This document shows positions 6,897 to 53,400 of a stretch of DNA of 64,000 bases, one piece after another (positions within the stretch are counted from its first letter, which is position 1; every line of letters starts with the position of its first letter). Location: contig CAVPCC010000016.1 of NCBI GenBank assembly GCA_963702335.1, forward strand, positions 49,528-113,527, given 5' to 3'. This DNA is from Vulcanimicrobiota bacterium (GTDB taxonomy: Bacteria; Vulcanimicrobiota; Vulcanimicrobiia; Vulcanimicrobiales; Vulcanimicrobiaceae). A program made the position numbers and the translations under genes. The notes under the pieces were generated by a model. It saw only the letters and a list, made by a program, of their open reading frames with translations, searched no databases and had not been told where the DNA came from.

Positions 6897-6899
6897 CGC

Positions 6900-26177: not shown

Positions 26178-26872
26178 GCGATAACCCGCTCCAATGCGCC
26201 TGCGTCCGTTTCGGCAAAGAAGCGGTTGTGCGTCTCGCTGATTCGCGGCGCCCAGGGGTCGATTTGCTTTCGCGTTACCGGGAAATGCACCGTGGGTCCG
26301 GCTGCATCGCTATAATTGCTTCCGTCAAACGGCACGAAACTGTTGCTCTCGCGGTGGGCGAGCACGATGCCACCGACCGCTTTTTCGGCATCGCGCGCGG
26401 CGGAGCGGATCGAAGCATCGAGTCTATCGTCGCTTGCCAGCGAATCGTAGAGCGCGAGTGCCGGCCGGTCGGCGTGCCAGGGCATATCGGGCGTTGCGTC
26501 GGGAATGCGCGCCATGCCCTCGATGGCGCTTGCATCTTGGCGAATCGCGTCCCGCTGCGATCCGGTTGCGGCCGCGAGTGCATCGTTCAAACGTTTTACC
26601 GAGGATTCGACACCCGAAAACGACTGGCGGCTTACGTCGAGTACGTCGAACGCTGCGGCCGGCGTGTAATCGAAACCCGGCCCGACATTGTAGCGATACT
26701 GCATCACATCGTTCACGACGGCATCCGCCATTTCACGCGGATCGCTTTCGTGCGCCGCAATCGCGTGCGCGACATTGCTCGGAACACCGGGAGAAACCAT
26801 CGTCTCCGGACTTGCGGCCAAATATGTTACGCCGACATGCGAGAGCGCGTCGGCAAATCCGAGCGAGGCCAT
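26174..26872 (-). pseudogene. C-terminal half of a clostripain-like (peptidase C11) gene split by the island
   Basis: ORF track, 232 aa, begins MASLGFADALSHVGVTYLAASPETM. It continues in frame from the fragment at 52894..53400 (…ANQCL|MASLGF…). Confidence 0.7.
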
Positions 26873-26902
26873 ATTATACGAAGTACAAAGGAGTATATCA
26901 TT
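26873..26902. repeat. left terminal imperfect inverted repeat of the island
   Basis: ATTATACGAAGTACAAAGGAGTATATCATT compared with the reverse complement of 52860-52886, ATTATATAAAATACAAACCATATCATT. The blocks ATTATA, TACAAA and ATATCATT are shared. Confidence 0.4.
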
Positions 26903-27026
26903 TCGCCACGAAGGCGCCGCGAAACTAGGAGGCGCGCGCGATGCTGCGACTGGCCTTTACCTCGAGCGCTTTTCGGCTCCATGGCGTAAGTCGACGGACA
27001 TTCCAGTCATTATAGATGACAGCGAC

Positions 27027-28080
27027 ATGTCCATCGCGCGCGTACCAACTCTATGGCTTGTGTACGTCGCTACGATCCCCGGTAAGACCCGCAGCCCAAG
27101 GACTTGGCTGGCATATGGAACGGGAGTTGTGGATTGGTTGCGGGTCTGCGATGCAAACGGTTGGAGTTGGGAAACCGCCACGGAAGAACAGGCGGCTGCG
27201 TATCGAGACAATGCTATTTCGGAAGAGAGCAGTTTGTCGAGCGAGTCCTGGATCCGAAGTCCATTAATCTTTATCTCACAAGCTGTGCCCGCTTCTACAA
27301 GTGGTGCGAAGAACGCAGTGACGTTAAGGAAAGCCCTTTCAAATATGTTCGTTCAAACCGCGGTAAGCACGGTTTGTTGGCGCATGTTAATTCCGAGCGC
27401 GATTCATCAAAGCTCCTACTTGCGTTACCTGAAGTCAAAGGGAAAACTCCTCGATTCTACACCGTCGCCGAAAGACGCAAGATCCAATCACTCATGGGAA
27501 CGCGGGATAGATTGTTCATGCGATGGGCGCTGTATACCGGGATGAGGATCTTCGAGATCGTGATGCTGGCGTTGAGCGACATCCCGCATCAGGACACGTA
27601 TGCTTCTGGAAAATGGCGGAAATTAAACATTCTCGGGAAAGGCGGGTACAGGAGAGATGTTGGGTTCCATCATTCATTTTGGATGAGACGTGGACCTATA
27701 TACGGTTACATCGTTCAAAGATACTTTCGGAGTGCAAAGCGCGGGGTGGTAAAACCGGCGAATCGGCGCTCTGGCCGGGTCGTTGGGGGAGTAAGCTCAC
27801 TGAAGCCGGCGCGAGAGCAGCTTTCAATGCAGCGCTTGAAGCAGCCGGTATTACCGACGGCGTGTTTCACGACTGCAGGCACACCTACGCTATTACCACT
27901 CTCGATCGCCTGATGTTGAAGTCTAGCGACCCGAAGGCGAAGTTGCGTAATCCCCTCGAGGCGTTGAAAAAATTGCTTGGGCACAAGCATCTTTCGTCGA
28001 CCGCGATCTATCTGCAGGCGCGAGAACAGTACTTGGAAGACCTCACGGACGATGACATTGAGGCGCCCGACAGTGTCTAG
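27027..28080 (+). CDS. tyrosine recombinase 1 (TnpA/RitA-like, ~350 aa; frame shifts ~27225 and ~27645-27655)
   Basis: Three frames join. The first is a SAM-like N-domain (TWLAYGTGVVDWLRVCDANGW...LDPKSINLYLTSCARFYKWCEER). The second carries RDRLFMRWALYTGMRIFEI (catalytic Arg). The third carries VFHDCRHTYAITTL (HxxR) and LLGHKHLSSTAIYL (His...Tyr). Confidence 0.8.
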
Positions 28081-29817
28081 GGCCCTAAAACGACACAAGG
28101 CATTCGCCGTTAAACTTCCCGCCAAGGGCTATGAACATGAAACAACATGGGCTTTCCTGGATCCTCACACGGCAACACAATGCACATTTGATTTCAGCGA
28201 ATGGCACAAGAAGCCAGGTCCGATCGTGCCGGACCTCGTGGATGCAGCAAAGCGCCTTGAAGGTCACCAGAACCGCTCCGTAAGGGGTCGGAGCGCTGTG
28301 TTGAATTGGTTGTTTGAATACCTCGTTAAAGCGAATTTAAAACCAAAAGCGACAGATCTCACTGATCAGATCCTTGTTGACGCAGTTACGTCGCGAGGAC
28401 TGAAAGGGCATGCGCCCAGCGTCGTCCACGGAAAGTTAAGAAGTATTGTAAATGAGGCACTGCGTTTACAAAACGTGCAGTTAAAAACGATTTACGATCC
28501 CTTCGCACCTGAGCGTTTAGCAGCACAACATAGTGAGAGTTTGTCGAGAGAACAACGCGAAGCAATCCTCCAGGCCGCAATGATTGACGTTAGGCGGATC
28601 TGGGATGAATTCGAGCGAGCGCGTTCGGCCGAGGCGACGAGTGCTATGACGTCCGTCGCTAAAATTGCCACTGAAAATGGCGGCTTTCTTCCGATTATAG
28701 GCTATGGGAAAAATTACAAGCGACTAAAGAAAACCAAGGCGATGCGCGCATTGTGGGCATTGAAGGCCCGCGAGCGCCGTGCAGGAAGACCAGCCGACGT
28801 TAGGACGTTTGATAGATGGCTTTATGCCACCGTTGAATCACTTCTGCCGTTTCTCATAGTCATCGCATATAAGCTCGCGGGAAACGTGTATTCGCTTTTG
28901 GAGAGTAAGCGCGATTTGTTGCGTGACGTGGACGACGTTATCCGCGGATCGCGATGCGCAGTTAGTTTCTACAAACCTAGGGCACGCAGAATATTAACGC
29001 ACATGCTTAATCCGGCGGGTCGATTTTCGGTCCCGAGCCTTATCAAACAAGTGCTTGCAATGACAGATCCTTTGGTCCCGCTCGTGCCGGAAGCGATGAA
29101 GAACCGGTTGTTTATTTGCTTTAACCGTGTTGGAAACAGCAAGGGAAAGCCACAGACGCTCAAGTCGACGCCAGGCTCAATGCGCCGATGGTGTCAACGA
29201 CATAATCTCATGAACAAAGACGGAACGCCGTTAACGTTCACTCTCGACATGTTGCGTCCGACGAAGATCAACGACGTTTACGAGGACTCCGGTGGGGATC
29301 TGCTTCTGGCGTACAAGGTAGCGAATCACAAGGTGCTCTCCACAACGTATGATTACCTAAAGGGTATACGAGCAGCCGATCTCGATCGAACATCGATAAC
29401 TGACGCTCAGGGGCAGACTTTACAGCATCCACCGAACGACGCGAAAAACAGTCCCGAGACGGATCGCAGAAATCAAAATCTCGTGAGGAAAGGGCCAGAG
29501 CCGTCGAGCGAGACTGTCTTGATCCAACGGACCCACCAAGATACACGGAAAAAGACCTGTGCCCGGAGTGGATGTCCACCGTCGCCGATCCGCACCTTGC
29601 TGTGCCGAATGACCCGAAATATGTCGCGAATATAATACTTGATCGAGATGCGTTCCTTGAGGCACGTGAAAGGATCGACGCAACTCGTTTTGCTCGGTAT
29701 TATGCGAACAAATTGCGGATCATCGATCAAGAAAGTCTACCAAAATTATCCCCGGATGTAGTAAAAGAAGCGACAAAGATAGCGGCCGGTTTACCGCTGC
29801 GGATGGAGATATACTAA
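28073..29817 (+). CDS. large tyrosine recombinase 2 (TnpB-like, ~580 aa; frame shift ~29417)
   Basis: The GTG at 28073 overlaps the recombinase 1 stop. Motifs LTFTLDMLRPTKINDVYE and LLAYKVANHKVLSTTYDYL. The C-terminal part continues in the frame of ORF 29572..29817 (DCLDPTDPPRYTEKDLCPEW...). Confidence 0.65.
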
Positions 29818-31641
29818 TGAACGCGCAAGTGCGAAGGGAAACTACGCGAGGTCCCGCGGTGGCTGCTGGAGCTGTTTCAACGACGATGTTTGGTATCTGC
29901 CCAATGCTGTAGTTACATCAGCAAGTAATCATATTCATTGGAAGGTGCAACTCGGCGAAGGTCGATGTCTAACGGATCCAATACACGAGAAGATACTTTC
30001 CACGTGTAAACAGATGCTGTACTGCATGCTTAAAGGCGATTACGGAGTTTACAAGAAGGCGCGCTGCCGCACCGTGTTTGGCACCTGGAGCGCCCTAAGG
30101 CCATTAGTGGTGTGGATGATTGCGCAAGGTCTGACCGCGTTTTCCGAGATGGATGAAAACCAAATAGCAGTCTACAAGGCAAAAGTCACGTCAAGTGGGT
30201 TGTCCGAGAGTCGCCAAGGCCGATTACTCTTGCCTTTAAAAGTGCTTGTGGCGCTGCGCGATAAGATTGAAGACCAACCTCCCGTTAAACCTCATGTAAT
30301 GCTGGAAATCCTGACGCTACCGTCCACGGCGCAAAACGAGTGCAAGACGCCTGCGATCCCAGACCATATTGCCATGCCGTTATTTCGAGAGGCGCTGGAA
30401 TTCATTGCGGCAAATGGCGATTTTATTTGTGAAGTCTACGCGCAAGATTGGGAAAGCCGGCGTGTTCACTATCGGGCTACCGCAAAGGCTGGCATGACGC
30501 ATGGCGCCGGCGCGTTGCGTGTGAGTCGCGAACACTTCGAAAAATATGCGTCATGCGACGTCATTCGGGCCGGTAGCCAGATCTATGCAATTCGAGAGAT
30601 CTCGCAAGTGAACGAAATAGTAACCGTACTGGAGACTGCCTGCTTTATCGTAGTGGCCGGGTTCGTTGGCATGCGCATTAGTGAGATCGGCTCATTAAAA
30701 TCGGGTTGCCTTTCGGTCCAAAAGAGCAATCGCGGCCTAACGTTACTTACCGTGCACGGCCTTCTTTTTAAGACTTCGAGAGAAGAAGAGGGTGTCCCGT
30801 GGCAGTGGGTCGCCGGTTGGGACGGGCCAGAAAATGTGGTCCGGAAAGCGATTGAAACGCTTGAGCGGCTTCGGCGCGCAGAAAAGTGTCAGCCAGCGTC
30901 GAGTGGATATTTATTCACCAGAAGTCACGGCCGCTTTCTGGATGGAGACGCTAACCCCCTGAAGAGCTCCTACTTTACTGCGCGAGTCAATAAATTTGCA
31001 CGGCTTTATGACATTGAGCCGTGGCATTTTACGCCTCACCAATTTCGACGCACCTTTGCACGGTGGGTAACGCGAAAGGACCCGAACGCGTTGCTCGCGC
31101 TTCGTCGTCACTTTGCTCATGTCTCGGTGCAAATGACGGAATTCTATTCATTCTGGGATAGTGACCTAGTCCAAGAAGTGTTGGATGCGGATGTTGAGCA
31201 AGACTATGAAGCATTCGACCAGATACTTGCCGCGGATCATTTGGCGGGCCAAAAGGGCGAAGAAATTCTGTCTCGCAAGTACCGATTCCGTGGTGTCGCC
31301 GGAGAGGAAGCGCGGGGAGCTATATCCGCGCTGAACTTGCGCGTCCGGCCGATGAACAGCTGATCATTATGCGTCACGATTACGGATATTGCATTTACTT
31401 GCCTGACAAGGCGTCCTGCGGCGGTGAACGCTGGCGCATCGGTATTGACACGTGTATCGGATGTTCAAACGCCGTATTTACGAAGCAGCATGTGCCTTTC
31501 TTAGTGCGCCAGAAGGAAGCGCGGCGTTCCGTTATAAGCGCGCCAATTTTTAAGACGCTTTCAGCCCGAGCTCAGACCGACGCACAAAATGGACTTGAGC
31601 GCGTGGAAAAGCTGCTGATCGATCTTACGGGGGCCGCCTAG
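29817..31641 (+). CDS. large tyrosine recombinase 3 (TnpB-like, ~600 aa; frame shifts near 29850-29900 and ~31320)
   Basis: The ATG at 29817 overlaps the previous stop (TAATG). ORF 29945..31363 has VAGFVGMRISEIGSLK (Arg), FTPHQFRRTFARW (HxxR) and LRRHFAHVSVQMTEFY (His...Tyr). A Cys-rich C-terminus continues in ORF 31369..31641 (HDYGYCIYLPDKASCGGE...CIGCSNAVF). Confidence 0.75.
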
Positions 31642-31997
31642 TGACGAAAAAGGAGCAAACGTTGCGCAATCTCAATGCGGCTTTGTCGCGCCTAATAAAA
31701 GAAAAACCAACGAATGAACACAATCAGAAAAACAAGAGCCCGGTTTCTGTAGCGGCGGTGGCCCGAGAGGCAGGCGTCAAGCCGGTCACTGTTTTTAGAT
31801 ACCCATCTGTATGCGATCGTATAAGGGCATTGAAAAAGCGATCGAAGAGTGCCAAGAGAACAGCAACCCGCGTCGCGAATGCGGCGGCTGAAAATGGTGA
31901 ACTTAGAAGGCAGATCCGGTGTCTGATCGATCGAAATATGGAATTAACGGTTAAGCTTTCAAAATATGAGTCCGATGAACCAGGATCAAAACGGTAG
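31641..31997 (+). CDS. TnpC-like small protein (DUF6262-like, HTH)
   Basis: ORF track, 118 aa. RNLNAALSRLIKE...VSVAAVAREAGVKPVTVFRYPSVCDRIRALKKR resembles the small third protein of Tn554-family elements (recalled from memory, not searched). The start overlaps the recombinase 3 stop. Confidence 0.5.
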   Translation: MTKKEQTLRNLNAALSRLIKEKPTNEHNQKNKSPVSVAAVAREAGVKPVTVFRYPSVCDRIRALKKRSKSAKRTATRVANAAAENGELRRQIRCLIDRNMELTVKLSKYESDEPGSKR

Positions 31998-32089
31998 TAA
32001 GGTTGCCTTGCGCAATCGATTTGCATCTGCCGCAATCGGCGTAGTACCGAAAATCCCCTCGGAGGCGCGGCGTATCTCACAATCGTGCA

Positions 32090-32429
32090 TACATCGGCCG
32101 TTCGTTGGAACGTCTTGTGCTGATACGAACTCGATGACGCCGCTCTAAACTTCTCCGGCACGTCGAGATGAACATCATGTCCGGCTTGCGGAAGTTGACC
32201 AACTAAGCATGTCGGATTATGTCTGCTACGTCGCGGACGCCTTCTCGATCCGCGAACGGAATGAACGCGAGCTGAAAATTGCACCATCGCGATCAATGGC
32301 TCCGGAAATCGTCCGGGTTGCCTTTCGGCCGGTGATGTCATGTTCGGGCACGCTCAGGAAACTTTCGATGCCGAGTAGACCGCCGAAAAACCACACAAAG
32401 CTTTGAACGATGCGCCGAACTATCGTCAT
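32090..32429 (-). pseudogene. possible C-terminal remnant of an alpha/beta hydrolase
   Basis: Two minus frames give ...GAIDRDGAIFSS... and ...CLVGQLPQAGHDVHLDVPEKFRAA (the GH..E.PE.F C-terminal pattern). No N-terminal nucleophile region is present. Confidence 0.3.
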
Positions 32430-32639
32430 AACAAATCGTTGATTTCCTCTTGGCTAGCGTCATCGCCGGCGCAAAAGCGGGCAGCCTCGTTCAGCAGCCG
32501 CTCGTGCGCGTCATCGCACATGCGCGGCCGACGCCGGTTGTTGGATCGTCCTCTCATCGTGAAGCGGGCGGTTTAATTACACTGCGGACGCCCAACAGTG
32601 ACCCGAAGAACTCGACGAAAGCTTCGGCAATCTCGCTTA

Positions 32640-32894
32640 TCATGAGTCTTCGAAAAGATTCGCGATGTCGTCGTTCGACGCGTCGAAATCGCCGGCGATT
32701 TGTACCTTTCCTCGGTCGACGCCCAGTTCACGCTTCGGATGCGCTTTATCTGTTTCGCCTTTGGGCGACGCCGAATCGTCGGACGAATTCCAAGATTCCC
32801 GCTCGGCCTTCACGTACGCGTCAGAGTTCCCGTAGACGCCTTTCAATTCACCGGCGAATGACTTATCGCCCGACGTTTTATCGTTTTCTTGCAT
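32640..32894 (-). CDS. small acidic antitoxin-like protein
   Basis: ORF track, 84 aa. The C-terminal GKVQIAGDFDASNDDIANLFEDS resembles the DFDAPL tail seen in some type II antitoxins. The stop overlaps a following short ATG ORF (ATGA). Confidence 0.3.
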   Translation of the reverse strand: MQENDKTSGDKSFAGELKGVYGNSDAYVKAERESWNSSDDSASPKGETDKAHPKRELGVDRGKVQIAGDFDASNDDIANLFEDS

Positions 32895-33549
32895 CTTATT
32901 GCGACTCCGTCTACTCTGCTTTGTGGCAGTAATCAGTGGCTAAACGTGCCAAAACAGAATCAATTCCTATAACTGAGTTCGTCGGCGGTCGGAACGCCGT
33001 CCGGCGTTGGTGCTGCGTTTCGCTTTACGACGCGCTCCTCGTTCCAAATGCCTTCAACCAGGTCGCGGATGCCCGAGGGCATGTGGCGCAAATCATTCCA
33101 TATTTCGCTGGGTCTCAGGAGATCGCGTATTCCGGCGACTAACTTCCGAAAATCTCATGCTCGATTTTACCGCATCAGAGACCATAGGTTTCGCCCGGTC
33201 CGCCGAACGGGTGAGTGCGACGCCGCTTCCGCCGATGGAACGCCTTGGTCGGGTCTAGTTTCCTCGTACCAACCAATCCTCGGGCTCCTCTCGTAGCGTG
33301 GGCCACAGGGCCGTGCCGATTTTCCCGATTGCGGTCCCCTCATCTGAATACATGCGGGTCAGCGGCTCGTCTAGCATCTCGCTCATGAGCTGCAGTGCCC
33401 GCAATGTCGACGAGTGGGACATCGCCGCCGGCCCCTGCCGCAATTAACCAACAAACGGTCGTTGCCACAATTGTCAGAAAGTGTCAGGCGTTACCAAATT
33501 CCAGTTTCTAGAACCCGTAATCCAAAGCGGCGCGATGCCCTTACTGCTC

Positions 33550-33750
33550 TCACTGCTGATCGGCGGTACGGTCCAGACATTCTCGTGCCCAGTTAGATGG
33601 TTCATCACGCACCTCGTCGCGTAAGCGCTCGAGATCAAGATCTATTCCAACCATTGGTGACGAGCGAAGAAAATCAAACAGCTTAGCGTTACTGTCGCCG
33701 CGCCCAATCTTGGTTGGTACGTTTTCGCGATCATCGTTCAATGTGGTCAC
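33550..33750 (-). CDS. VapB/AbrB-like antitoxin fragment followed by a decayed PIN-like region (33250-33550)
   Basis: ORF track, 66 aa with LFDFLRSSPMVGIDLDLERLRDEVRD. Downstream minus frames contain CWLIAAGAGGDVPLVD, reminiscent of the VapC motif D.WIAA.A...PLVT. The region is weak and frame-broken. Confidence 0.3.
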   Translation of the reverse strand: MTTLNDDRENVPTKIGRGDSNAKLFDFLRSSPMVGIDLDLERLRDEVRDEPSNWARECLDRTADQQ

Positions 33751-34410
33751 CTCACACGTTGCGTCTCTATGTTGTATGGCGCGTCATCGTCTAACTTCGT
33801 GCAGCAGCCTCAGGAATGATATGTACGCTCGCTCTTCACATTTGTAGCACGAGACAGCGAGCGTGCCCATTGAAAAGAACTTAAAAGTGCGACCGAAACA
33901 CCGGCAAGGAGCACTCCCCAATGCGGTAACAACCCGCCGTGGCGGCTTCGTAACCCAGACAAGAATCCCCAAATTTGTGAGGCCATAGATTGGAAACATG
34001 GCTGGAAAGGGAGTTTTCATTGCGAGTCACCTTTCGGACGCTCTGAGGCGCAAAGGCATTCCGCTCGAGCGGCGTAGTTTTACCGCTCGCTGGATCTCGT
34101 ATGAAACAATACTTGCATACCGCGACAGCGCTTGTCGTTGCTCCGGCACGGACCACGCGTCGATAAGGCGTGACACTTCGGCTGACTTCGCAAATACGTA
34201 GCGGATGTGCCCATCGCTGAGGAGTTCCCGGTTTAAGAGCTTCTGTCGATTAAACAGAAGCCATGATGCAAGCTTAGGTTCTCAACAGCGACCGTCTTTG
34301 ACTTCCCTGTCATTACAAGGCACTTAGAACGTTCCCCCGATGGAGCCCCGACTAGTGCCTTGCGCTGGGTTTGCCCAGGCCGGTGAATTGGGGTCCACGC
34401 CATATATGGC

Positions 34411-34665
34411 GTGGTGCATACCGAGTTCCTTCTGTACGCTCGCCTGGTGGCGGACCACCAGTACAAACGGACTCTCAAACGTCTAGCCGCCAACATTCGG
34501 AAGCGGCGAGGAGAGGCTCGGCCTAACGCAGGAAGACGTTGCTCATGCGGCCGACATGGCGGTTCGACATTTTCAAAAGCTCAGGACGCAGACGTTAACG
34601 TGACGCTCCGTACGATGACGAAAGTTGCGCGTGCTCTCAAAAGCGATTTACGCGATTTGTTGTAA
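34411..34665 (+). CDS. XRE-family HTH regulator (frame-broken)
   Basis: LKRLAANIRKRRGEAR.. / ..QEDVAHAADMAVRHFQK.. / ..NVTLRTMTKVARALKSDLRDLL across frames. This is the typical Cro/C1 HTH layout. Confidence 0.45.
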   Translation: MVHTEFLLYARLVADHQYKRTLKRLAANIRKRRGEARPNAGRRCSCGRHGGSTFSKAQDADVNVTLRTMTKVARALKSDLRDLL

Positions 34666-35675
34666 AGTTGTCGTCAACAGATTGATGGAGCGCGACGCAG
34701 CGTCTAGCACTCTTCAAAAGGCTGATAATCTCGGTATCGGGCGCCTCAAAATGCTCCCGAAGATGCAAGTTGACCGAGTGCATTCCAGTGTTTCCGTTCG
34801 GAGCCGGCGCGAGCGTTTTCGCGAATACCTAAGCGCACGAATCAACCGCAATGGTGCAACAATCGCAGTTACCGAAACCGGCGATTTTCCTGCCATCATT
34901 CGGCGCCGTATCTTCGAACAAGCAAAATTCGAAAAGCCAGCTGCTAGATCGCCAAATCGTACCAAAGGGCGGTAGATAGCGATCACGCTTGGGAGCAGCA
35001 GGTACTAGATCGAATAGGTGCGGGCAAACGTGTCGCAACCCTCGCCGAGCGCGTTGGCGAAACGACCCGTGCGATTGAGGCGGCCTGGCCAAGCATGCGG
35101 CGCGCGAAATATATTCAGGAAAAACGACCGAACCCCACGAAATCAGCCTATTCGGAGGATACCAATGGCACGTTCACTCCTCGGTGCGCTTACGTCGGCT
35201 CTTTTCAAAGCCGGCCGTACCTCATCGAACATCCATCTCGCCGAGTCGCTCCTTACCGGTAACACCAAGTCGGTCGAGCGTAGCCTCAAGACGCGTGTGC
35301 GCAATAAGGCGAAAACCGCGCTCTGGCACGCGATCACCGGCAAACGCCGATGAAATTGACCCCGGAAATTGGCAGTCAACTACGTCGCCTCGAGGGCGTA
35401 ACCAATAGATTGAATAGCGCGCTTGGTGCGTTGAATGAAAATATCGAATCGCTCAAGCGAATCGATCCGCGCTATGTCGAAACGATGCATCAGTATCGGA
35501 CAATGGAATGCATTCGCGACGTCGGCAACACATTTGATGATTTCAGTTCAGCACTTGTGTCGCTGTTTCGCTTGCTGGATCTCGAGTAGTCGCCTTCGCA
35601 TTACGCGCTGTGACAGGCTCACCGTGGCCCGAGGCTCTTGCGTCGAGCACGCATCTTTTACATCATGGGCGGCCT

Positions 35676-35861: not shown

Positions 35862-35871
35862 GCTTTAGACG

Positions 35872-42700: not shown

Positions 42701-45700
42701 CTAAAAAATGCCGCTCTCAAACTCATCATCCGTTGCTTTCGCGCGGTCTCGCTCTCTTGACAAGCCACATCGCAAGTCTTCCTTCCATGCAGCAATTTTG
42801 GGATTCCCAAATGCTGGTATATCTTCGACCAATTCAAGCCGTTCGTCGTAGTAATCAGCCATCGGGCCAACAGTCATAAAGCTGTGAAAGTTAGCATCCA
42901 AGTTCCTAAGGACATCGTCACGGTCGCCAAAATGTTGAAGCAACGCCTTCATCAGATCCGAAATTACAAGGGGCGCATTACGCTTAGCGACAACCATTTG
43001 GCCCCTATATGCGAGAAACCAAGGAACATCATCTGGATAACTTCGCGCGAAGTCGACCAAAGTATCGAGCGGTAGAACTTCCAGCGCAAGCCGGTGACCA
43101 ACTTCACCCGGTTCGTTGTATTGCATCGCGTTGAGCAACTCCCATCGTTCCCGTCGATCCAACGAACGATATGCCTCACGAAGTCTTAGCCACGTGCTGC
43201 TGTCGCGCAGAAGATCACGCCATAACCCAGACGCTCGATACTTTTCGTGAAACCCAGCCCCAGAAAGTGCGAGTGCAAGCATCTGGTCCGCCAGGTGAAC
43301 CGCGAAGCCATGATTCTTCTGCAAAATACGTGGTATGATCTTAAATAGGCTCCACTCGAGTGTGTTCGGCAACGGATTCTCGACAAACTTACTCTCGATG
43401 ACGATACGTGCAAATACATTATCGAACGAGTGCGTCTGTTCTACACCAAATATGAGCATATGCACGACGGATGCGTACCATCCGCGATCAATCAGCACAT
43501 TTGCGAGCTCTGCTATTAGGGATGGCTCGATATCTGACAAGCGCTTCCCGACGAAGGCATACCCCGAAGGTTCCTGCTCTAGCATGCCGTCGCGGTATGC
43601 TCCAATGAGTCGGCGCACGTCCTCAGGCAAAAAACGCGGTTGGCTGGAAAGCAGCGGCAAAGGCTGGCGCGAGCGTCTTGTCTCCGGCAATGCGTTGGAG
43701 AATCAGTTGCCGCAGTTCAGGGTCTCGATCGGCGATCACCTGAATCATTCCGGTCAGTGCAAGTTCGTTGCGCGGCGGAGCCGCAGTGCGATACGCGTCA
43801 ATGGCAAACTCCGCAAGCGCCGGCAGATCAGCTGTCATCTCTGCTACACGTTGTCCATACGAAAAGGCCAGCGAGTGATGTCCGCTACTGAGTGCATTGA
43901 TGACTTGTTTAACCTCACCGCAGTCCATTGTGGCAGCCGCAAACTTTTCAAGCCGCTCCAGTGAAACATCAACGACCGTTCCATCGCGCTCCTCCAGATT
44001 GCTCGGCGGAGCCGTAACGTATACTCGAACGCGATCTTCAAGACTTGAGGGCTCCAGTAAGCCTAGCATGCTCTCCGCAGCTGCTCGGTCCTCAATTGGG
44101 GCATCTTTAAGCTCGTAGTTAAGAACCCAGGTTAATCGTTCGATCGCTTTAGGCCACGCGCCACCAGACAACGATTTTAGTGCTAGGCGTAGATCATCCC
44201 ATCTCCGATAACGCACGAGCGTAATAGTCGCATCAGCAATAACATCCCGTGCAAGTTCTAATCCCTTCTCGCCAATTGACGCCAAGCGCAAAGCCCGTTC
44301 TACACCGCTGCGGTAATAATCAAAAATCTCGTCCCAGGTTTGTGGTCTCCACTCGACGAGTTTCGGACGTCCGCCTTGCCACTCCGGGCCCAAACGAATA
44401 CAGCCGCCTTCGTGTTGAAACATCCGTTTGAGATTCCCAGCGATTACCGATTCTTTGTTGTTTCGGTGGCTCTCAAACATCTCGTCGAGCACCTGTAGTC
44501 TATTACGCGGAGGCGCTTCGGTTTGCGAGCCGAGTAGTCCAAATAGTTTATGAAGTGTACCAGTCGCATTATTGGTATAGGTGCTGTTCTCGTTGCAAGA
44601 TAAAGCGAATAGAACACGAGTGCGTTGATGAATTGCTCGTGATGAAAGGCCATGCATTCTAGAGCGAAAACCAGTGTCTGGCGCCCTTTTGAGTCATCTA
44701 TAGACCGTAACTCGTCATCACTAAGGCGCAATAGTGTCCGAGCAAGAGCGGAGGCCGCTGAAGTCGGGTCCACCTCCGATAAAGCGTACACAAAGTCTGC
44801 GTTGCCGCTACCAATAATGCCGTCTAGCGTCCCAAATCGCCCATTAGGTGCGAAAAGCTCTTCGGCCAGTCGCACGGCGGTAGGAGTACTAATTTCGTGA
44901 AAACGCTTTGCGAGCGAATCAGCCAACGATTCTGGCAGATTATTAAATAGCCGCTCTTTTGTGTCAGGCAATGCATCAAGTAGCCATTCATGTGCTAGAC
45001 GAATCGCCAGCGGCGGTGGCGTAACTCTCCAGTATCTTCCAATAGTGGCGATGAGCCCGCTCCGCTGATAAGCTCAGGATAGGCCGGTAGAAACGTTCCC
45101 GTGATATGTCAGGAGCGAACATCGATCTTAGAACGTCCCACTCATCTTTGACATTATCCACGTGCCCTACGTGATCGAAAAGCGCTAGTAGGCGTAGCAC
45201 CTTTGGCGCATCTAGATCGCTATCGTTGGAAATCAAGCGCTGGGTCAACTCATCATCTCGGAGGGATGCGATATGCTGCTGCCCAGCCTCGACTGCGTCC
45301 AGAACGATCAAAGCCATTAAGGGCCAACCTTGAGCGTAATCAACGATACGTCGGATATCTGCATCGTTGAACCTTATGTGAAGATCGGCACGACCGACAA
45401 CGTACGCCCGAACGATACTTTCGATAGTGGCGTCGTGCAACGGTTGAAGAATCCGCATTGGACGCTGAATCGGTCTGTGTACTTATTGTGATAGCGGTTA
45501 GATTCGTTCCGTGAATTTCTTGGGCGATTCGATTATGAAGTTCGAGCGTGCAGTCGTCGACTACGATTATGCCGCGAGTTCCGGCGCGTTTCCAATGGGG
45601 TAACGCCCTTAATAGATCGACTGATGCCGGGAAACCGAGCATTAAAGTATACAGCGGCGTCCTTCGCATTTTCGGCGGCTCGCAGCGTTTCCAACGCTAC

Positions 45701-46596
45701 ACGTGTCTTGCCCAGGCCAGGAGCACCCGTAATTCTGTAAACCGCTCCCGATGCATCGAGTGTCTCGCGAATCCCTTTGACTATTTCGTTAGTTCCGTCG
45801 GACGGGACGTAGGGGTTCTGAAAGTGTGCTTGCCGTTGCCATTCGTCGAACGTGATGAGTGTAGTGGCTCAGAGCGACCCGTTGCTCGCAACACAAAAGT
45901 TCGCGCCCAGAGATCTTGACTGGCCCACGCTGCGATCTCCTCGGCAGCAAAGATTGCAATTGTAACTCCGTTCGAACGAAGGTGCCGTTCCGCTGCCTCG
46001 ACCATCGAGCAAATTCGGATTTCTTGTTGTTCTGCAGTTAGATCGGCGGAACAGAAGAGCACGTATGCGCCGCTCGCCGCAAGGACATTGCGTATCGCCG
46101 GTTTTAGGTCACTCCGATCGCGCCGCTCGATCTCGCGAACCAGGCTCCGACGCGCTCATTCCGCGTCCAGACTTCGCCTGCCAGACAATTTGCCGCGCAG
46201 GAAGGTGCGGTGTGCGCTCGCGGCCGTCCTGCCAGTGAATGGTTCCGTCGACGCCGCCGTCTGCCACGGTAATCCGCCTTGTGGTTCGCATCGTAGCGTC
46301 GAGGCCGTTTTGTAAGGCCTCCGCTCGGATGAGGTGATTGAGCAACATCACGAAATCCGAAGGGCTGAGTGCTTCAACGTCCTCCGGACCGATGTCGAAC
46401 GGACTTGCGGCGCGACTCGGCGACGGCGCGACGTCCATTCGCGCAGGTGTCGCTGGACGGTAGCAAGGCTACCCTCGCCGAGGTGGTCGCGAACAGCGCG
46501 AGATGTCGGCCGTGCTCCGCTTCCCAAGAGCCGGTTTGCCGCAGCCGCAACTTGTTCGTACGTGATCCCGGGTCTGCCGGGGGAAGTGGTACTCAT
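42701..46596 (-). CDS. NLR/STAND-type NTPase locus: KfrA-like HTH + Mrr-like nuclease-like domain + P-loop NTPase + long helical repeats (~1300 aa if one protein; at least 7 frame breaks)
   Basis: Joined minus-strand ORFs 46348..46641, 46109..46438, 45781..46062, 45340..45669, 44988..45458, 44444..44971, 43623..44657 and 42701..43690. Motifs:
- ITYEQVAAAANRLLGSGARPTSRAVRDHLGEGSLATVQRHLREW (KfrA_N-like);
- LSPSDFVMLLNHLIRAE...ITVADGGVDGTI...QIVWQAKSG (D...QxK);
- Walker A GAPGLGKTR (45704-45727);
- Walker B GIIVVDDC;
- IVDYAQGWPLMAL. Confidence 0.65.
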
Positions 46597-47248
46597 AGTA
46601 AAATTATGGATTCGAATCAAATCATATCGGACCCTTGTCAAAGGAAGGGGACGTGGGAACTTCTGTCGTAGGCCCGGGCCAAGGCGCGTGGAGCGCCCCA
46701 GCGCAAATGTACTCAGCCCCGGCGCAGGGGCCGACGGAAACGCGCGAGAGGGCCGGCAATCTTTTTGGCGACCGGGTCGGCGGCGACGGCCAACGACTCG
46801 GTCGTCGCGCGGTATGATGACTACGATTCACATTACGGTAGGTCAGATCAAACGGCATAACGCGCCTGCTCTGCACCGCAGAGCGTCGCACCGGTGACTA
46901 TCGTTCACGAGCGCCGAAAGCAAGGGGCGAAACCGCAGTCATTTACTTATCGCGTACGAACTGATCGTACGGTGAACTATCGAGTGCGCGAAGCGGGCGT
47001 GCGGGGTTTCTTCACGCCTTGGCTCGACGCGGAAATTGATCCGCAGCCAGCGTTCTCGAAGCACCGTTGTCTGAGACAATACGGATCGTTCCCGACTCGA
47101 AGACGGCGCACGTGGCGCAGTTGTTCTTCACATCAGAACAGTCGGTTCTACAAGCGGAGATTCAAGATGGCGTTTGCCCTTCACTCGAGCCTCCGCCAAT
47201 GCTTCGCCGGCCTGCAGATGCTGCTGAGGTCCGCGTGCCGCGTCACTT

Positions 47249-50200
47249 ATGAGCATAATGGATGATCTAAATGTCCGTTCTGCGGCCGACCCTCTGCGCG
47301 GATACGAGTATCAACTCTACCGTTCCGTGCTGGACTGGTTGTCATTACCAGTCGGCGATCGGCTATTTCTTGAGCGCGGCGAAGACTTATTGACTTTGGG
47401 AAGCAAGGGCGAGCAGCAGCATCAGCAAATCCGGGATGTCGCCGCGCCCATTTCCCTCAACCAACAGAAAACACTCCGTTCGCTCGAATACTTTTGGACA
47501 GACCCGAACCACTGAACCGCGCGCCAACTTCAGGTACATTACGACCGGCGACATCGGAGTTGAACAGGGCCAACCTTTTGGACCCGGAGTTAAAGGCGTC
47601 GCATTATGGCAACAAGCACGGCGCTTGGGAACGCTGGAAGCAGAAGAGATAACAGAACGTATTCGCAAATATCTTCTCAACAAAGGCAAAATCGGAGGCG
47701 AACTAAAGGCTGCGCTTGGGACTAAATCGTGAAGATCTTCATCGCGAGTTAATCGTTCCATTCGATTGGTTACTAAAGCGCCAACTACTGAAACGATCCG
47801 CCAACAGGCTCTTGGCGTCCTAATTGAAATTTCGGCGGACGCGCAGTATCGCATTCCGACGCAGGAAGCAGAAAGCGTCTTAAATACCCTCGTGACGGAG
47901 GTTCTACGCGTCGCCGCGAGAGAGCCAACTGAATGTTTGACACGCGGAACACTCCACACCATTCTGTCGAATCATGCACTGCGGCTTGTACATCCGGGTG
48001 ACCTTCAAGACATGATGACGACGATTGCGACTCAGGTAATCACGCAGGCTGGCGGAAGATCTGTTGAAACCTCTGTATCGCTAGCGCCGCCGCCTCTACC
48101 AATGCAATACCTGCGTCGCGAACGCATCTATGGCGCCGTTCTGTCCGCGCTACAACGGCGATCTTTTTGCTTCATCAGCGGAAGTGTCGGAACCGGTAGA
48201 GATCCTCGCCAAAGACATTGCTGCACACGGAGCGTGGTCGTGGCTTGCACTACGAGGTTTGTCCGGGGTTGCGGCTGCGGACCCGCATTGACCGCGCATG
48301 GCGTGAGACTCTGCGATTGAGAGACCGTCGATAGTGTCGTAGTAGATGATATCAACTTCGATGAAGACACCGGGGCTGTGGTTGACTCCGTCGCTCGGCT
48401 CTTGAACACGCTGCGATCACGGAATGCGTAACCTCGTTGGAACCAGCTCGCGCGGCATGCCGACTCGGCTCGAATCGCTTGTCGGCATCGAAACATCACA
48501 TGCGATCAACGTCGATTACTTTGACGTAGCGGAAATTTCGACGCTTCTGTTAGAGTTTGGCGCGACGCCGGGAAGCATGCAAGGTCTCTTGCCGTTCGTT
48601 TGGCTCCCGCAGCTTCGGTGGTCACCCCAGACTCGTCATTGCACATATTGCCGCATTGAAGCGCTTAAATTGGGACATGGATACGTTCAGAAGAGCAGGC
48701 ACGCTCGGGAGTTGCGAACATTCATCTCGATATTCGGCGGCTGGTGAAGTCTCTTCAGCGTGAAGAGCGTTTGTTTCTATATCGTCTCAGTCTGGCGCTC
48801 GTATCGCTTTCGCGAAAGCAACTGGTACACTTGGCTTCCGTCGCTCCGCGGATTGAGGAGCCAGGGCTTGTCATTGACCGGCTCACTGGCCCATGGCTTG
48901 AGCTTGATGCCACGGGAGCCGTACGCAAAACTCCACTTATATCCGGATTATGTGAAGAAGTGCTGGACGCCCAGGATGTTATCGCGCTCCATGCCGGCAT
49001 CGCCGACGCACTCTTAATTGAACGCTCGTTACGGCTCGATGACGTTGTCGGTACTTTATGGCACGGAATCCACGGTGGGAACCAAGACGCAATCGCCTTC
49101 CTGTTGGCAGCATTATTACAGCAAGGTGACGGTATTATTCGATCTGCAGCGCGGTCGGCCGAATTTTTCGTAAGATGGCGCACTGAGGGCGATTCTACCA
49201 TACCGTTCTCCAGACCCGTCGTGCGTCTTGTTGTCCGCATGGCGCAAGTACGCATGGCGTCGCTATTAGAAAACGGTGATCTCGTGAAGGCGGTAGTCGA
49301 TGCTGCTGAACGCGAGATGCCCGACGCCGGCAACACGAGACGCAAGCGATCTCTTTCGACGGCTACGTACTGGTCTTCGGGCGCCTTTCGATCGAATCGA
49401 TGACTCGCCGCGCTATAGCGTGGGCAAAAAAAGCCAGCAACGACCCGGCTTTCTCCCGTATAGAAAGCGGCCGCGGCCAGAAGACGCGCCGGTCCACGGC
49501 ATCGTCTGCTCTGGAGATGGCAGCGAGCATGGTTCTCGGACGAATTCGAAATTCCAACGACCTTCAGGCCATGCTACGCGCCCTTGTCGCAGCACCCGAA
49601 GAGGTCCGGCGCGAGTTCCTGGAGTGGTTAGGTGACTCTCGCTTTATGCTGCGGGGCGTGTTTGGACAGGCCGAGTTACTCGAATTTGACCGTGGGGAGC
49701 CGCGTTGGCAAGACGTCGTAACGGCCGTGCAGCACTTATTTCAAGTCGCGATTGGACTGAACTTGATTCACGTCGCCAGATTGTGCGCGGGGGAAATAGT
49801 CAAAATCATCGCGGGTCCATTGAACAATCCGGCGCAGGCGTTGGATGAGTTGACGAAAATAGAGCACGAAATCGGTACGGACCCACTCGTGTCCTGCGCT
49901 CGAGCGCATGCCCTATTTCGGGCCGCGCATTACGACCGTGCACTTGATCTGTGGCAAACTGTGTTACCCGACTCAGGTGACCCCGCCGATCTGCAATCCT
50001 CCGACGAGGCGAGGTACGCCGCGATGGCGGCTGCTGCGTTGGGGCGCTACAAAGACGCAAAGCATTGGCTATTGTGGGCGCGGGAGCGCCTTTCTGAAGA
50101 GTACTTTGGGCTTTCGCGCGCTGTACTGGCTGTCGATGCGGCATTTGCTTCGTGGAAGGCCTTCGAAGACATGGAGGCGTGCCGACTGCTGAGGCTTGGC

Positions 50201-51254
50201 ATCCGCGAGCTGGCAGCGCATGCATGACCCGTTGGATTCCATGCAATTCGCCTCATTAAAGCGGGTGGGACAGGTTGTATCATGGATGTCGTCGCCTGAC
50301 CGCAACAACTTGCGCGCGATGGACTATGTAGTTCCGGATATCGGTATCGCCAGTAAACTCGACACTGTTACAGACGAACGAGTACGTGCTACGCCATTGA
50401 CCTACATCGCGGCGTGCGCATGTGATGTCGAGTTTCGCGTGAATGGCGATGGCTCTATGTATGACGAATTTCAACAAGCGTTTGATGCCGACAGGACGCC
50501 TGAAGTTGCCTACAAGGCCGCGCTATTGAGAATGGTGGCTGGTCGATCCGCAGACATTTAAAAGATATTCCTGAGGCGTTACGCGCAATCGTCAAGGAAC
50601 GTGAGCGGGTGTGCGCGTCGCTCGGAAGGCCCATGCCGGCGTCGGATATGGACATTTTCGTTTCGCGCGACATCTTCCGCTGCGATTCTTTCCCTTACGT
50701 CGGAGAAGACCCGTCATCTGAACTCTTGGTCGGTTGGCCTTAACGGAATACGGCTTCCCAACCGCCGCCTCGGTGGCGCAGCACGCTGCAGAGATGGCGG
50801 AAATGAGCGAACAACAACTTGTGCAGTTAATCAACGGCTCTGATGGATTGGTGCGCATGCTCGCCTCAATCTTCTTAGGCACCGGCTTCTGTTCCAACAA
50901 TCCGCGGCTATTGTCTGTCTGCGCACATTACTGGATCAATGTCGCTGAAGGGCCGACGCGTCGCTCGATCCGGCGAGAATGGTCGGCGAAACGCTTGGCG
51001 CATCAATTGCGCCGATAGTGCGCGAACGCTTTGCATTTAGCAACCCGCAGCAGGCTGTTCCTATTATCGAAAAGGTACTAAACGCGATGGAAACGCCGTG
51101 GCGGTACCTTCGCAGTTGCTCGAAGCACTTCTCGGAGCGGTTACTGGCAGGATGTGACGGCCGTTATCCGCAGCATACTAGAGAAAGTATCCGCAAACGA
51201 GCAGAAGTGGTATTTCGATCGGTAGATCTTTTAATCGAACGAAACCTACATTAA
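47249..51254 (+). CDS. Avs/NLR-like STAND locus: DUF4297 (Cap4-type) nuclease-like N-domain + P-loop NTPase + TPR-like repeats (~1330 aa if one protein; many frame breaks, possibly more than one gene)
   Basis: Joined plus-strand ORFs 47249..47515 (DPLRGYEYQLYRSVLDWLSL...LFLERGEDLL), 47436.., 47766..48320 (Walker A ISGSVGTG at 48177-48200), then SVVVDDINFDED (Walker B), FGGHPRLVIAHIAAL, 48744..49403, 49400..50227 (TPR-like AHALFRAAHYDRALDLWQ, AAALGRYKDAKHWLLWA), 50196..50561 and on to 51254. Confidence 0.65.
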
Positions 51255-52397
51255 AATGAGCATGCCGTACGCGGACGCCGTGGGCGAGCTGATCGCCGGA
51301 GAATCCGGCTCCAATGGCGCGATGGTGAGCGTCCCAAACTTTGATAAGGGCCATATATTATGGTGAAACGTATAAAGAACCGCAAGGCGCGGTCCAAGCA
51401 AGCTTGGCCTGCGTAATCGAGTTGGCGTGGTTTGTACGCAACCGATACGCGCTGGCCTTGATATTGGGCTTTTGAAACTTCTTCAAGAATGTGAAAGCGC
51501 GTTCTACGCCTTACGCGAAAAGGCTACTACGTTCCAAGTCGCAGAAGCGCCGGCGCGTGCTGCAGTGCAGCAGTACTTGACCTATCTCAGTATGCTGGTT
51601 GACATCGCGCTTTGGGCGATCGTGGCTCTCGCGCTGCACGACAACGCACGCGCGGCGTTTATATCTACAACGCCTTATGTTGGAATACGCCGGCGAAGCC
51701 GACTATTACGATACTCACGCTGATTATGCGCTGTGGGCTACGACCATTGGTGAACGGGAAGATTATTTCAGGCGCATGCGGGACATCGGTGTGGATCCCA
51801 CTTCCTGGATAACTTAACAGCCGAAATCGAAGTCGCAAAGTCACAATATCCCGAACCCGCCAAACGGTCTCAGTCGGAGAAGAAGTGACTTTCGGGGATT
51901 ACCTTCACCGATATGTGTATGGGGGCTGGCGGCGAGCGCTTGACGTGGTTTTACAAGCGACCGAGCATTTATATTCATGGCGATCCGGTTGGAATGCGTG
52001 AAATGTTTGTGTCATCAGGCTCTGCCACTGGGGGCAAGATTGACTTTACCGACGAGGAAGTTAATGCGCACCTCGTTGATACCGGAGGAAATTTCTTAAC
52101 GTTCTGCCGCGCATATCGAGCGGAACTTTGCGGAAACGCAGACCCCTGTGCTTGACAATCTATTTGACGGCCTTCAAAATCGGCTCGTGCGTTTCGCGCG
52201 GAGATATGGTGATCGCGACCCTGATCTGCTCGATGAACTTATTCACCAAACTTCGGACGATTGATGCGTCATCCGTGGATCAGCGCTTCAGACAGCCAGA
52301 TTTGCAGCGCGACGGTGCAGGCACACATCGAGGAAAGTGCGGCTCAGTTTGCCGAGGTTCGATACCGTGTGCATACAAACAACGTCTGGGACGACTG

Positions 52398-52715
52398 CTA
52401 CACGTGCGGCTTGCCGTCAACAGCATAACACTTCTGATGCACAATTATTGACGGCGAAAGTTGAGCCAATTCACGATTTTGTTGGTGATCGGATGAATTG
52501 AAGCAGCCTCTATACGATAGTACAGCGGCGGCTCGATTTGGCCGCCGACCACGGAACGAACTAACGCCACAGTGTCGGCGGAGTTGATCTGCCAGATTCA
52601 CAGCATTATTTCCGCGCGCCCAGCCGTATTGTACCGGCGGATTGATAGCAATCACGTCGACATCAGAGTACTGAGTGTGTACGAGGTCATCAATTGCATC
52701 GATGAGTGACTCCAT
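52398..52715 (-). CDS. small unassigned protein at the island's right end (~92 aa after one frame correction)
   Basis: MESLIDAIDDLVHTQYSDVDVIAINPPVQYGWARGNNAVNLA then, one frame over, QINSADTVALVRSVVGGQIEPPLYYRIEAASIHPITNKIVNWLNFRRQ. Composition is protein-like, but I recognise no family. Confidence 0.3.
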   Translation of the reverse strand: MESLIDAIDDLVHTQYSDVDVIAINPPVQYGWARGNNAVNLADQLRRHCGVSSFRGRRPNRAAAVLSYRGCFNSSDHQQNRELAQLSPSIIVHQKCYAVDGKPHV

Positions 52716-52859
52716 AATGCATTAATGTTCTCCATATGCCTGGCCGTCACTCCCGACTGTCGGATTGTAGATTAAGCAGCATGAGCACCGTCGACACGCC
52801 GATTCTATCTAGGCGCGTCAGCGAAGATAGACGCGGGCACCTGATGAAATGTGTGCAAC

Positions 52860-52886
52860 AATGATATGGTTTGTATTTTATATAAT
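52860..52886. repeat. right terminal imperfect inverted repeat of the island
   Basis: See the left repeat. It lies 7 bp inside the right junction. Confidence 0.4.
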
Positions 52887-52893
52887 TAGCGAT

Positions 52894-53400
52894 AAGACAC
52901 TGATTGGCGACCACACCGTCGATTTTGCGGCCTGCGTCCTCGGGATGCTCCCGTGCGTGCAGTTTGATGCCGTCCGCAATGGCCTGCGCCATCTGCGGCA
53001 TTGCCATGATCTGCTTTGCGCTGTCCGCTTCCAGTCCGCCGCCATCGCCCGCGCCGTGGTCGACCAGATCGATCCACGTCTCTTTTGCGCCCGCCTTCTG
53101 CGCGTTGTCCAGCGTGCGTGCAACGAACTGCGCTAGGTTCTGTTCCGAGGCCATGTCGTGCGGCGCATCGATCGAGGCCTGCCCGATGTGCCCGTCGGCA
53201 AGCGTAAACGAGTCCGTGCGCAGTTTCTTGCCGCCCAAAGACGTCGTGTCTTGGACCGTGTATTCGATTCGCGAATCGGCGGCGCTGGTCTTCAACGCCT
53301 GACCGAGCGTTACGCCCTGGGATTCGTCCAAATTGTTATCGCCATCGCGATAAATCCCGAACTCCAACGTCCGGGTTTTTGCCGGGCTCAATGCCTGCAT
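52894..53400 (-). pseudogene. N-terminal half of the clostripain-like (peptidase C11) gene split by the island
   Basis: From the ATG at 53400: MQALSPAKTRTLEFGIYRDGDNNLDES...ETWIDLVDHGAGDGGG (His motif)...KIDGVVANQCL. Homology ends at 52894. The ORF then reads through island DNA (IANYIKYKPYHCC...). Confidence 0.7.

Follow-up and report, generated by a model that had tools for sequence, protein, structure and literature searches.

Among the least understood movers of bacterial DNA are the four-gene tyrosine-recombinase elements and their kin (strand-biased circularizing integrative elements, or SEs, GInts and Tn554), which spread drug-resistance and virulence genes. Tn554 relatives are known from Staphylococcus and Enterococcus (Firmicutes) and measure about 6–7 kb. 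SEs are treated as a group apart from both Tn554 and the GInts, and they share with Tn554 an anatomy in which the inverted repeat is accompanied by unlike 6-bp spacers, the recombinase-distal spacer having been brought from the previous insertion site; in SEs a 6-bp spacer lies beside motif C (PMC10214605). GInts, whose median size is 34.9 kb (PMC10214605), carry a four-gene operon at one end and an AT-rich stretch at the far end (PMC5385486). Here we describe a 26,021-bp island in the genome of an uncultured soil bacterium of the Eremiobacterota, contained in a 64,000-nucleotide stretch of contig CAVPCC010000016.1 (the window), which is very probably an SE-like four-gene tyrosine-recombinase element inserted site-specifically into the gene for a C11-fold peptidase. 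The insertion is exact, the same site is used in a second species, and what is new is a distant SE variant, in a new phylum and with a new target.

An island inside a peptidase gene

The island spans window positions 26873–52893 and cuts the peptidase gene in two within the motif ANQCLMASLGF, after Leu169 and before Met170, leaving two minus-strand fragments (Table 1), the first of which continues past ...DGVVANQCL for 48 unrelated codons before its stop. When position 52894 is joined to 26872, a protein of 401 aa results. The protein collection contains 1163 relatives of it; the top 120 are 393–431 aa long, 62–72% identical to the rejoined protein and colinear with it across the join, covering 98–100% of its length, and the named relatives are Eremiobacterota (Baltobacteraceae, Vulcanimicrobiaceae and related groups). 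An alignment of 24 sequences, comprising the rejoined protein and 23 homologues, runs through the join unbroken. DGVVANQCLM..GF does not vary in it, and nor do DHGAGDGGG and ANQCLM, the candidate seats of the His-Gly ... Cys dyad of C11 peptidases. At 139 otherwise invariant columns the rejoined protein deviates three times, compared with 0–6 times for the intact homologues, and the C-terminal fragment of a second copy, introduced below, deviates at none of 75; by this measure the split halves look undecayed.

Assignment of the gene to a family depends on its fold. The rejoined protein has no Pfam or NCBIfam match above threshold, and a profile of the 24 homologues retrieved nothing useful from the PDB sequences. 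PF03415 is matched weakly by nine of the 24 (best E 1.7e-7), and fragipain gives a marginal match to the rejoined protein that spans the join. An AlphaFold model of one homologue, P0002 (pLDDT 83, pTM 0.87), was compared with the PDB using Foldseek, and its seven best matches are all C11 proteases (6nag, 6mzo, 9cip, 6n9j and 5l20 among them; E 8e-12 to 4e-6, TM up to 0.73), including iotapain, the Parabacteroides C11 zymogen and clostripain. This supports the view that the product is clostripain-like (C11) at the level of the modelled fold and a predicted peptidase. The genomic context upstream of the gene, with relA and a phosphoribosyltransferase gene, is kept in four further loci discussed below (L008, L009, L080 and L082), which places the peptidase gene in the core genome.

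The two junctions have the letters ATA in common (26871–26873 and 52892–52894, within GC[C/G]ATA), which leaves the crossover point ambiguous by three letters, and there is no target duplication. The empty site can be read directly in relatives. On a 2555-nt soil-metagenome contig, the sequence homologous to the window runs up to 26872 at contig position 1880 and resumes from 52897 at position 1884, meaning that in this relative 26872 is joined directly to the base equivalent to 52894; other short-read soil-metagenome contigs likewise cross the insertion site, reading ...GCCAT and then CAAGCATTGG. Base composition follows the same boundaries: the GC fraction is 0.58–0.69 in the flanks and 0.50–0.57 inside the island, save for one 1-kb bin at 0.61, with a step at both junctions. 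The left junction is identical in a second, independent assembly (L001), which excludes a chimeric assembly at that point. In addition, two contigs (X3 and X9), assembled from short reads of separate runs within one soil study, are 99–100% identical to window positions 26620–26873, and their alignment to the window ends at 26873, leaving two and seven unaligned letters. These ends suggest that the assembly graph branches at the junction, reflecting occupied and other alleles in one population.

A first-pass annotation, made from the letters of the window, had named the same two fragments as halves of one clostripain-like gene whose empty site could be reconstructed to the base, and had described a drop in GC, an imperfect inverted repeat at the termini, a recombinase cluster at one end and the lack of a long target duplication. 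Homologue alignments and uninterrupted relatives agree with this description, as do the ends and module treated next. One detail needs amendment: AT is indeed shared by the junctions, but it is not the whole of the overlap, which is ATA. Two features treated below had escaped that annotation, namely the six frameshifts in the recombinase genes and the use of the site by other types of element.

Table 1. Features of the island and of the gene that it interrupts, in window coordinates (ORF, open reading frame; RBS, ribosome-binding site)
Feature	Position	Strand	Remarks
C-terminal peptidase fragment	26174..26872	-	232 codons, MASLGFADAL...; gapless alignment with 23 full-length homologues
Putative attL spacer/crossover core GGCCAT	26867..26872		host letters, codons Met170-Ala171, beside left repeat
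Left terminal inverted repeat	26873..26902	+	ATTATACGAAGTACAAAGGAGTATATCATT; recombinase-proximal end
RBS AGGAGG	26927-26932		before intA-like gene
intA-like tyrosine recombinase (gene 1)	26941..28080	+	380 aa; read through 1-nt deletions after 26994, 27232, 27659
tfp-like gene (gene 2)	28052..29817	+	~588 aa; read through 1-nt deletion after 29417; Asn replaces Arg-I
intB-like large tyrosine recombinase (gene 3)	29817..31641	+	608 aa; read through 1-nt deletions after 29868, 31319
srap-like small protein (gene 4)	31641..31997	+	118 aa; start overlaps intB stop; weak helix-turn-helix and DUF6262 matches
ORF-poor cargo stretch	32000..36090		no ORF above ~115 aa
T5orf172/MUG113 (GIY-YIG-like) protein	36092..37219	-	375 aa, intact; Pfam 2e-13, 9e-12
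DEAD/DEAH-box helicase	37323..39314	-	663 aa, intact; Pfam DEAD 1.6e-7, Helicase_C, ResIII
MmeI-family type IIG (IIL) restriction-modification enzyme	39447..42044	-	865 aa, intact; MmeI_Mtase 2.7e-97, MmeI_TRD 1.7e-53, MmeI_hel, MmeI_N
Further cargo ORFs, function unassigned	42219..52715		no Pfam or PHROGs match
Right terminal inverted repeat	52860..52886	-	reverse complement ATTATATAAAATACAAACCATATCATT; within AT-rich end
Putative attR spacer TAGCGAT	52887..52893		7 nt, neither repeat nor target
N-terminal peptidase fragment	52894..53400	-	169 codons, ...DGVVANQCL; runs into island to stop at 52747

The recombination module, its ends and its relatives

The left end of the island holds a module that, once six 1-nt gaps are read through, resolves into four ORFs whose stops and starts overlap; as assembled, the intA-like gene is spread over three frames, and genes 2 and 3 terminate oddly. 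Read-through gene 1 matches Phage_integrase (5.8e-14) and has the catalytic R (TGMRIFE), K, HxxR (HDCRHT), H and Y. Gene 3 matches the same family (1.1e-11) and, in an alignment-based reading, has R (GMRISE), HxxR (HQFRRT), H and Y, and what had been listed as a 90-aa ORF (31369–31641) is the Cys-rich C-terminus of this intB-like protein. Gene 2 has no Pfam match; alignment places an Asn at the Arg-I position in it and in its relatives, and it appears to be a recombinase relative without Arg-I, belonging to a rare family, for which a search of 1.84 billion representatives yields 201 proteins at E<=1e-3. Between the window and the second copy, pN/pS is 0.12 for gene 1, 0.13 for gene 2, 0.36 for gene 3 and 0.58 for gene 4. 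These values show the four frames to be real genes, on which selection acted during most of the 3% divergence between the copies.

The termini of the island carry an imperfect inverted repeat, in which 24 of 27 aligned positions match, with one 3-nt gap, between 26873–26902 and the reverse complement of 52860–52886. Among 5000 shuffles 34 score as high, as do 24 of the same number of internal windows (p ~0.006). The left-end motif recurs, read as the reverse complement, at the right end of the island and, at the same place, in a more distant family member (L085, CTTATCTGAAGTACAAAAGGACCGTATCAT), and this conservation suggests that the island ends are functional sites. The last ~40 nt of the island (52850–52893) are AT-rich. 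Both repeats are abutted by unlike spacers of 6–7 nt, as they are at the SE of pAQU1 and in the published SE tables; by analogy, GGCCAT on the left probably acts as the spacer or core, and TAGCGAT on the right, which is missing from the uninterrupted gene on the empty-site contig, is a candidate footprint of a previous insertion site. A metagenome scan with a degenerate pattern of the terminal repeat returned 69 loci, all of them AT-rich chance matches with no related protein.

The second copy of the element lies on a 1.07-Mb contig (L001/L010) of the metagenome-assembled genome (MAG) MFD09603.bin.2.176 (GCA_963795855.1). Here identity to the window is 73% in the adjacent host genes and about 72% in the C-terminal peptidase fragment; it rises to 96.9% exactly between ...GAGGCCAT and ATTATACG and persists through 5.1 kb of module, a jump that defines the left boundary to the base. 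Beyond the module the two copies carry different cargo, apart from 2 kb that they share at 82% identity. A 97%-identical module within a 73%-identical backbone implies that the element moves between species and recognises this site. Two insertions at the identical base in backbones so far apart (~73% identical) also allow target recognition to be tested in nature, along with the rule that such elements make no duplication and carry over a spacer.

Close relatives of the module are rare, since a word-based protein search with the uncorrected third gene gave only four matches; a scan of one genome per species with read-through IntB returned the L001 contig only, and a metagenome scan with IntA found no relative. 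Short-read soil-metagenome contigs hold related copies of the module at 85–95% identity. At a greater distance, read-through gene 3 has full-length matches of 25–31% identity in 75 plasmid records and weaker ones in 272. A Mesorhizobium plasmid (NZ_AP023260; L003, 3012–8194) carries a colinear four-gene module of 380, 595, 606 and 149 aa, and a Bradyrhizobium plasmid (NZ_CP025114; L004, 2958–8287) one of 386, 614, 632 and 142 aa, located beside mer genes. Gene 2 matches its Mesorhizobium and Bradyrhizobium counterparts with E-values of 4e-35 and 3e-29, and gene 4 matches the Bradyrhizobium gene 4 with 2.9e-7. These unnamed modules of alpha- and betaproteobacterial plasmids, alike in having four colinear genes of similar sizes and 24–32% full-length identity for genes 1–3, are the nearest sequence relatives outside the Eremiobacterota and are annotated only as integrase or hypothetical protein. 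Together with the copies in soil metagenomes they would make up a wider, very divergent SE-like branch, whose host range reaches into a barely cultured phylum.

One further family member points to a different target. The JGI contig Ga0558092_0072888 (L085, 1–4200) carries an IntA-like gene (60% identical) and a Tfp-like gene (49%), both intact, and is truncated inside intB, where GC steps from 0.50 to 0.63; the inverted-repeat partner of its left end is not on that contig. This left end adjoins a minus-strand ORF at the contig end with the motif TRQIGNAV, which is a different gene from the target in the window and which we take to resemble the C-terminal part of a C5 DNA methyltransferase.

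Family placement and the state of this copy

The module was compared with one reference from each four-gene group, both taken from the tables of PMC10214605: SE-Pda04Ya311 on pAQU1 (IntA 545, Tfp 614, IntB 671 and Srap 161 aa) and the GInt of E. coli Sakai, ECs_3512-3509 (GinA 401, GinB 437, GinC 543 and GinD 132 aa). Each module protein finds its best labelled match in the SE protein of the same position, with hhalign probabilities of 96.8% for gene 1 and IntA, 13.5% for gene 2 and Tfp, 93.1% for gene 3 and IntB, and 70.2% for gene 4 and Srap; the corresponding values for GinA, GinB, GinC and GinD are 15.6%, 0.1%, 81% and 0.5%. The likeness to SEs extends to the layout, with the same four core genes in the same order beside one terminus, namely an ordinary recombinase, an incomplete protein of ~600 aa, a Cys-tailed large recombinase and a small protein, of which genes 1 and 3 have the RHRY catalytic set and gene 2, in the place of Tfp, does not. 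It extends further to imperfect terminal inverted repeats (13–19 bp in SEs) with unlike 6–7-nt spacers (6 bp in SEs) and no duplication, to the lack of transfer genes, and to target specificity, since in a species whose backbone is 73% identical the orthologous gene has a junction that agrees to the base. The island differs from known SEs in that its proteins are only 21–26% identical to those of the gammaproteobacterial SE, its IntA has 380 aa rather than 545, its length of 26 kb exceeds the SE median of 15.7 kb, its target lies inside a C11 peptidase gene, and its host is a member of the Eremiobacterota, whereas SEs are reported mainly from Gammaproteobacteria. As its proteins align, the module is a very divergent SE-type one, neither a GInt operon nor the three-gene set of Tn554. 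RIT elements also combine several adjacent tyrosine-recombinase-type genes between inverted repeats, but their repeats are 34 bp long and their recombinases, of 315–410 aa, are all catalytically complete and lack a small fourth gene (PMC10214605), unlike the 380-, ~588- and 608-aa proteins, the Arg-I-less gene 2 and the small gene 4 of the island.

Under an SE-like reading, the island would have arrived by site-specific entry into the codons of the catalytic-cysteine motif (ANQCL/MASLGF) of a cytoplasmic C11-fold peptidase gene. The target core GGCCAT would have stayed beside the left repeat, with no target duplication, and TAGCGAT beside the right repeat would, by the SE/Tn554 rule, have been brought from the element's previous site. 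Recombination would be carried out by IntA and IntB with the help of the two accessory proteins, probably through a circular intermediate.

The three large genes of the module are all broken in the window by six 1-nt deletions (after 26994, 27232, 27659, 29417, 29868 and 31319), so that, as assembled, this copy cannot move by itself. At five of these sites (26994, 27232, 27659, 29417 and 31319) the extra base is present in Illumina short-read contigs of related copies and in L001, and after 29868 in L001 alone. The L001 module (6560–11720) has in turn eleven further 1-nt insertions at other places, mostly outside homopolymers. Such one-sided indels, with deletions in the window and insertions in L001, fit neither simple decay nor the usual error profile of long reads. 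Three sequencing runs with the same strain reach 2–3-fold coverage and contain no reads over any of the six sites. Either the frameshifts are errors of the consensus or they put this copy out of action very recently.

Several points weigh against an SE-like assignment, or at least against its completeness. Strand-biased copy-out, the trait for which SEs are named and in which recombination of attL with attR yields a circle by preferential use of one strand and without an empty site, is not readable from sequence. The homology of Tfp (13.5%) and Srap (70%) is weak, being obtained with three-sequence profiles against single sequences, and because gene 3 also resembles GinC the distinction between SE and GInt is not sharp at this distance. 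The right junction is known from the assembly of the window alone, and no sequencing runs with the right end or the cargo were found. Neither a circular junction nor an empty site of the same strain was seen, the stop of the X3 and X9 alignments at 26873 being the sole hint. Finally, with the three large genes frameshifted in both known copies, present activity is unproven.

How, then, do other families fare with the same evidence? That the island is a GInt, with ginABCD and its three integrases, would account for a tripartite layout that both groups have in common, consisting of a four-gene operon at one end, variable cargo of GInt size and a short AT-rich far end, and for the resemblance of gene 3 to GinC. 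Site-specific insertion into genes is likewise a property of GInts, restriction-modification cargo is common in them, and they have been reported outside the Proteobacteria (Bardaji et al. 2017, PMC5385486). We nonetheless regard a GInt as unlikely, because genes 1, 2 and 4 find no match in GinA, GinB and GinD and match SE proteins instead, the Arg-I-less member is gene 2 here and gene 3 (GinC) in GInts, and gene 2 has ~590 aa compared with 437 aa for GinB. Moreover, the imperfect 10–17-nt direct repeats that flank GInts are absent from the junctions, which offer only GC[C/G]ATA, and reported GInts sit at gene ends, whereas the island destroys its target gene. The first-pass annotation had seen in the junctions and the recombinase cluster the behaviour of Tn554-type elements, and in a broad sense this is apt: by description, the island resembles Tn554 in its strong preference for a site inside a gene, its lack of duplication, the unlike, non-target spacer of 6–7 nt at one end and its combination of an ordinary recombinase, a large tyrosine recombinase and a small protein, and PMC10214605 describes the same insertion traits for Tn554. 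Membership of the Tn554 family proper (tnpA, tnpB, tnpC) is, by contrast, very improbable, given that nothing among the three core genes of Tn554 corresponds to gene 2 (PMC10214605), a conserved fourth core gene that in the island lies between the recombinases and is under purifying selection (pN/pS 0.13). Gene 2 is present in every relative that we examined (L001, L003, L004 and L085). Tn554 and its relatives are also small (~6–7 kb, compared with 26 kb for the island) and are known from Firmicutes.

Two further explanations concern the reality and the condition of the island rather than its family. That the structure is an assembly artefact, or that the two halves are normally separate genes, has a negligible probability. 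An artefact could find some footing in the presence of the right junction in one assembly only and in the odd excess of single-base indels in the recombinase region, which could mean trouble with the consensus, but it would have to explain why the left junction recurs in an independent assembly, why the halves complement each other to the base in the correct order and orientation, why the contigs of relatives run uninterrupted through the site, and why GC shifts at precisely the two junctions; the notion of separate genes is already refuted by more than 1000 homologues in one piece. A different matter is whether the element is a dead relic, with real frameshifts, disabled after its arrival and kept only for its defence cargo, a proposal that concerns the state of this copy and is compatible with an SE-like identity. 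We give it a chance slightly short of even. In its favour, the frameshifts are limited to the recombination genes and spare both the cargo genes of 865, 663 and 375 aa and 37 kb of host genes; the second copy has breaks too, at its eleven other places; and L085 is truncated inside intB. Furthermore, wherever same-strain short-read contigs show an indel relative to the host flanks, the DNA is likely non-coding (they are one base shorter at 12098, 14514 and 53652), suggesting that the assembly is not generally error-prone in genes. Long neutral decay, on the other hand, does not fit a pN/pS of 0.12–0.13 in intA and tfp, or, in intA, a tally of nine indels to 38 substitutions that are mostly synonymous, and the peptidase halves show no decay. 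The pattern in which all changes in the window are deletions and all extras in L001 are insertions looks technical rather than biological; L001 belongs to a MAG with a 1.07-Mb contig, and long contigs suggest long-read data; and the module is common to co-occurring populations at 85–97% identity, a setting in which consensus errors arise.

A recurrent insertion site and the cargo of the island

The peptidase gene is interrupted in other Eremiobacterota as well. With the N-terminal fragment as query, many short products of the same gene turned up on long contigs, and break points were counted in the 120 fragments listed. Among these, 39 break after ...CLMxxxGFA and continue with a conserved tail, EGYY(I/T)R...; this class has a conserved inserted end of ~40 nt, GAGGGATACTACATAAGG.CCTTT.AAAC.TCCGGT, and the tail EGYYIRAFKRPV. 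One such locus (L008, 10001–20642) encodes a 462-aa Cas1 (TIGR00287, 125 bits). It also encodes a protein of 978 aa, for which Pfam gives a weak match to family-B polymerases and the PDB sequences and NCBIfam give none. In L082 (L082/L083, 10001–20729) the same ~40-nt end is followed by a homologue of this protein (61% identity) that is oriented the other way. We regard this class as a candidate casposon-like family with inverted-repeat ends, and the site may hold a new family of Cas1-bearing transposons. About a dozen fragments break after ...LAASPET, and at such a locus (L080, 10001–20556, and L081) are found a 588-aa XisF/Ccr-like serine recombinase, Fic and a DyP peroxidase. A break after ANQ (L009, 10001–19724) is followed by a 482-aa serine recombinase and then HamA and a DEAD helicase in a Hachiman-like arrangement, and L084 breaks after ANQC, with no recombinase within 10 kb.

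The same ~90 nt, the best conserved of the gene, are therefore broken by serine-recombinase islands and by a Cas1-bearing element in other Eremiobacterota, which makes this segment an insertion hotspot. A more far-reaching proposal, which we put forward tentatively and hold to be somewhat less probable than its negation, is that the ~90 nt encoding the active-site stretch (ANQCLMASLGFADALSHAGVKYLAASPETM) serve as a phylum-wide landing pad in the Eremiobacterota, on which at least four unrelated insertion systems converge: the SE-like island (after CL), two kinds of large serine recombinase (after ANQ and ASPET) and the Cas1-bearing inverted-repeat element (after GFA). Since the split halves look undecayed, interruption and restoration of the peptidase might even be reversible. 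Gene-interrupting elements that are excised by XisF-type recombinases provide a model for such reversibility. Most of the hotspot elements encountered carry defence genes, and the peptidase segment would offer a simple marker by which mobile DNA and defence islands could be charted in Eremiobacterota metagenomes.

The cargo of the island itself includes three intact genes (Table 1). The MmeI-family enzyme matches REase_MTase_IIG of PADLOC at 3e-236, and the helicase gives weak PADLOC matches to PbeA and Cas3. Among the ORFs of unassigned function, 43623–44657 on the minus strand has a weak PADLOC match to PD-Lambda-4_A (1.3e-9). A prophage or conjugative element was considered and rejected, as no PHROGs, Pfam or PADLOC match of such a kind occurs in the island; without transfer genes, it must use other routes between cells. 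The island likewise contains no tRNA-type attachment site, CRISPR array or RNA gene, and its ORF-poor stretch no Rfam family, tRNA or tandem repeat. Within this stretch, an 84-aa ORF (32640–32894, minus strand), for which no partner gene was seen, ends in ...GKVQIAGDFDASNDDIANLFEDS, a C-terminus that presumably resembles those of small antitoxin-type proteins. The 2-kb cargo stretch that recurs in the second copy lies in the same part of the island, where 32644–34655 is 82% identical to L001 15010–17049.

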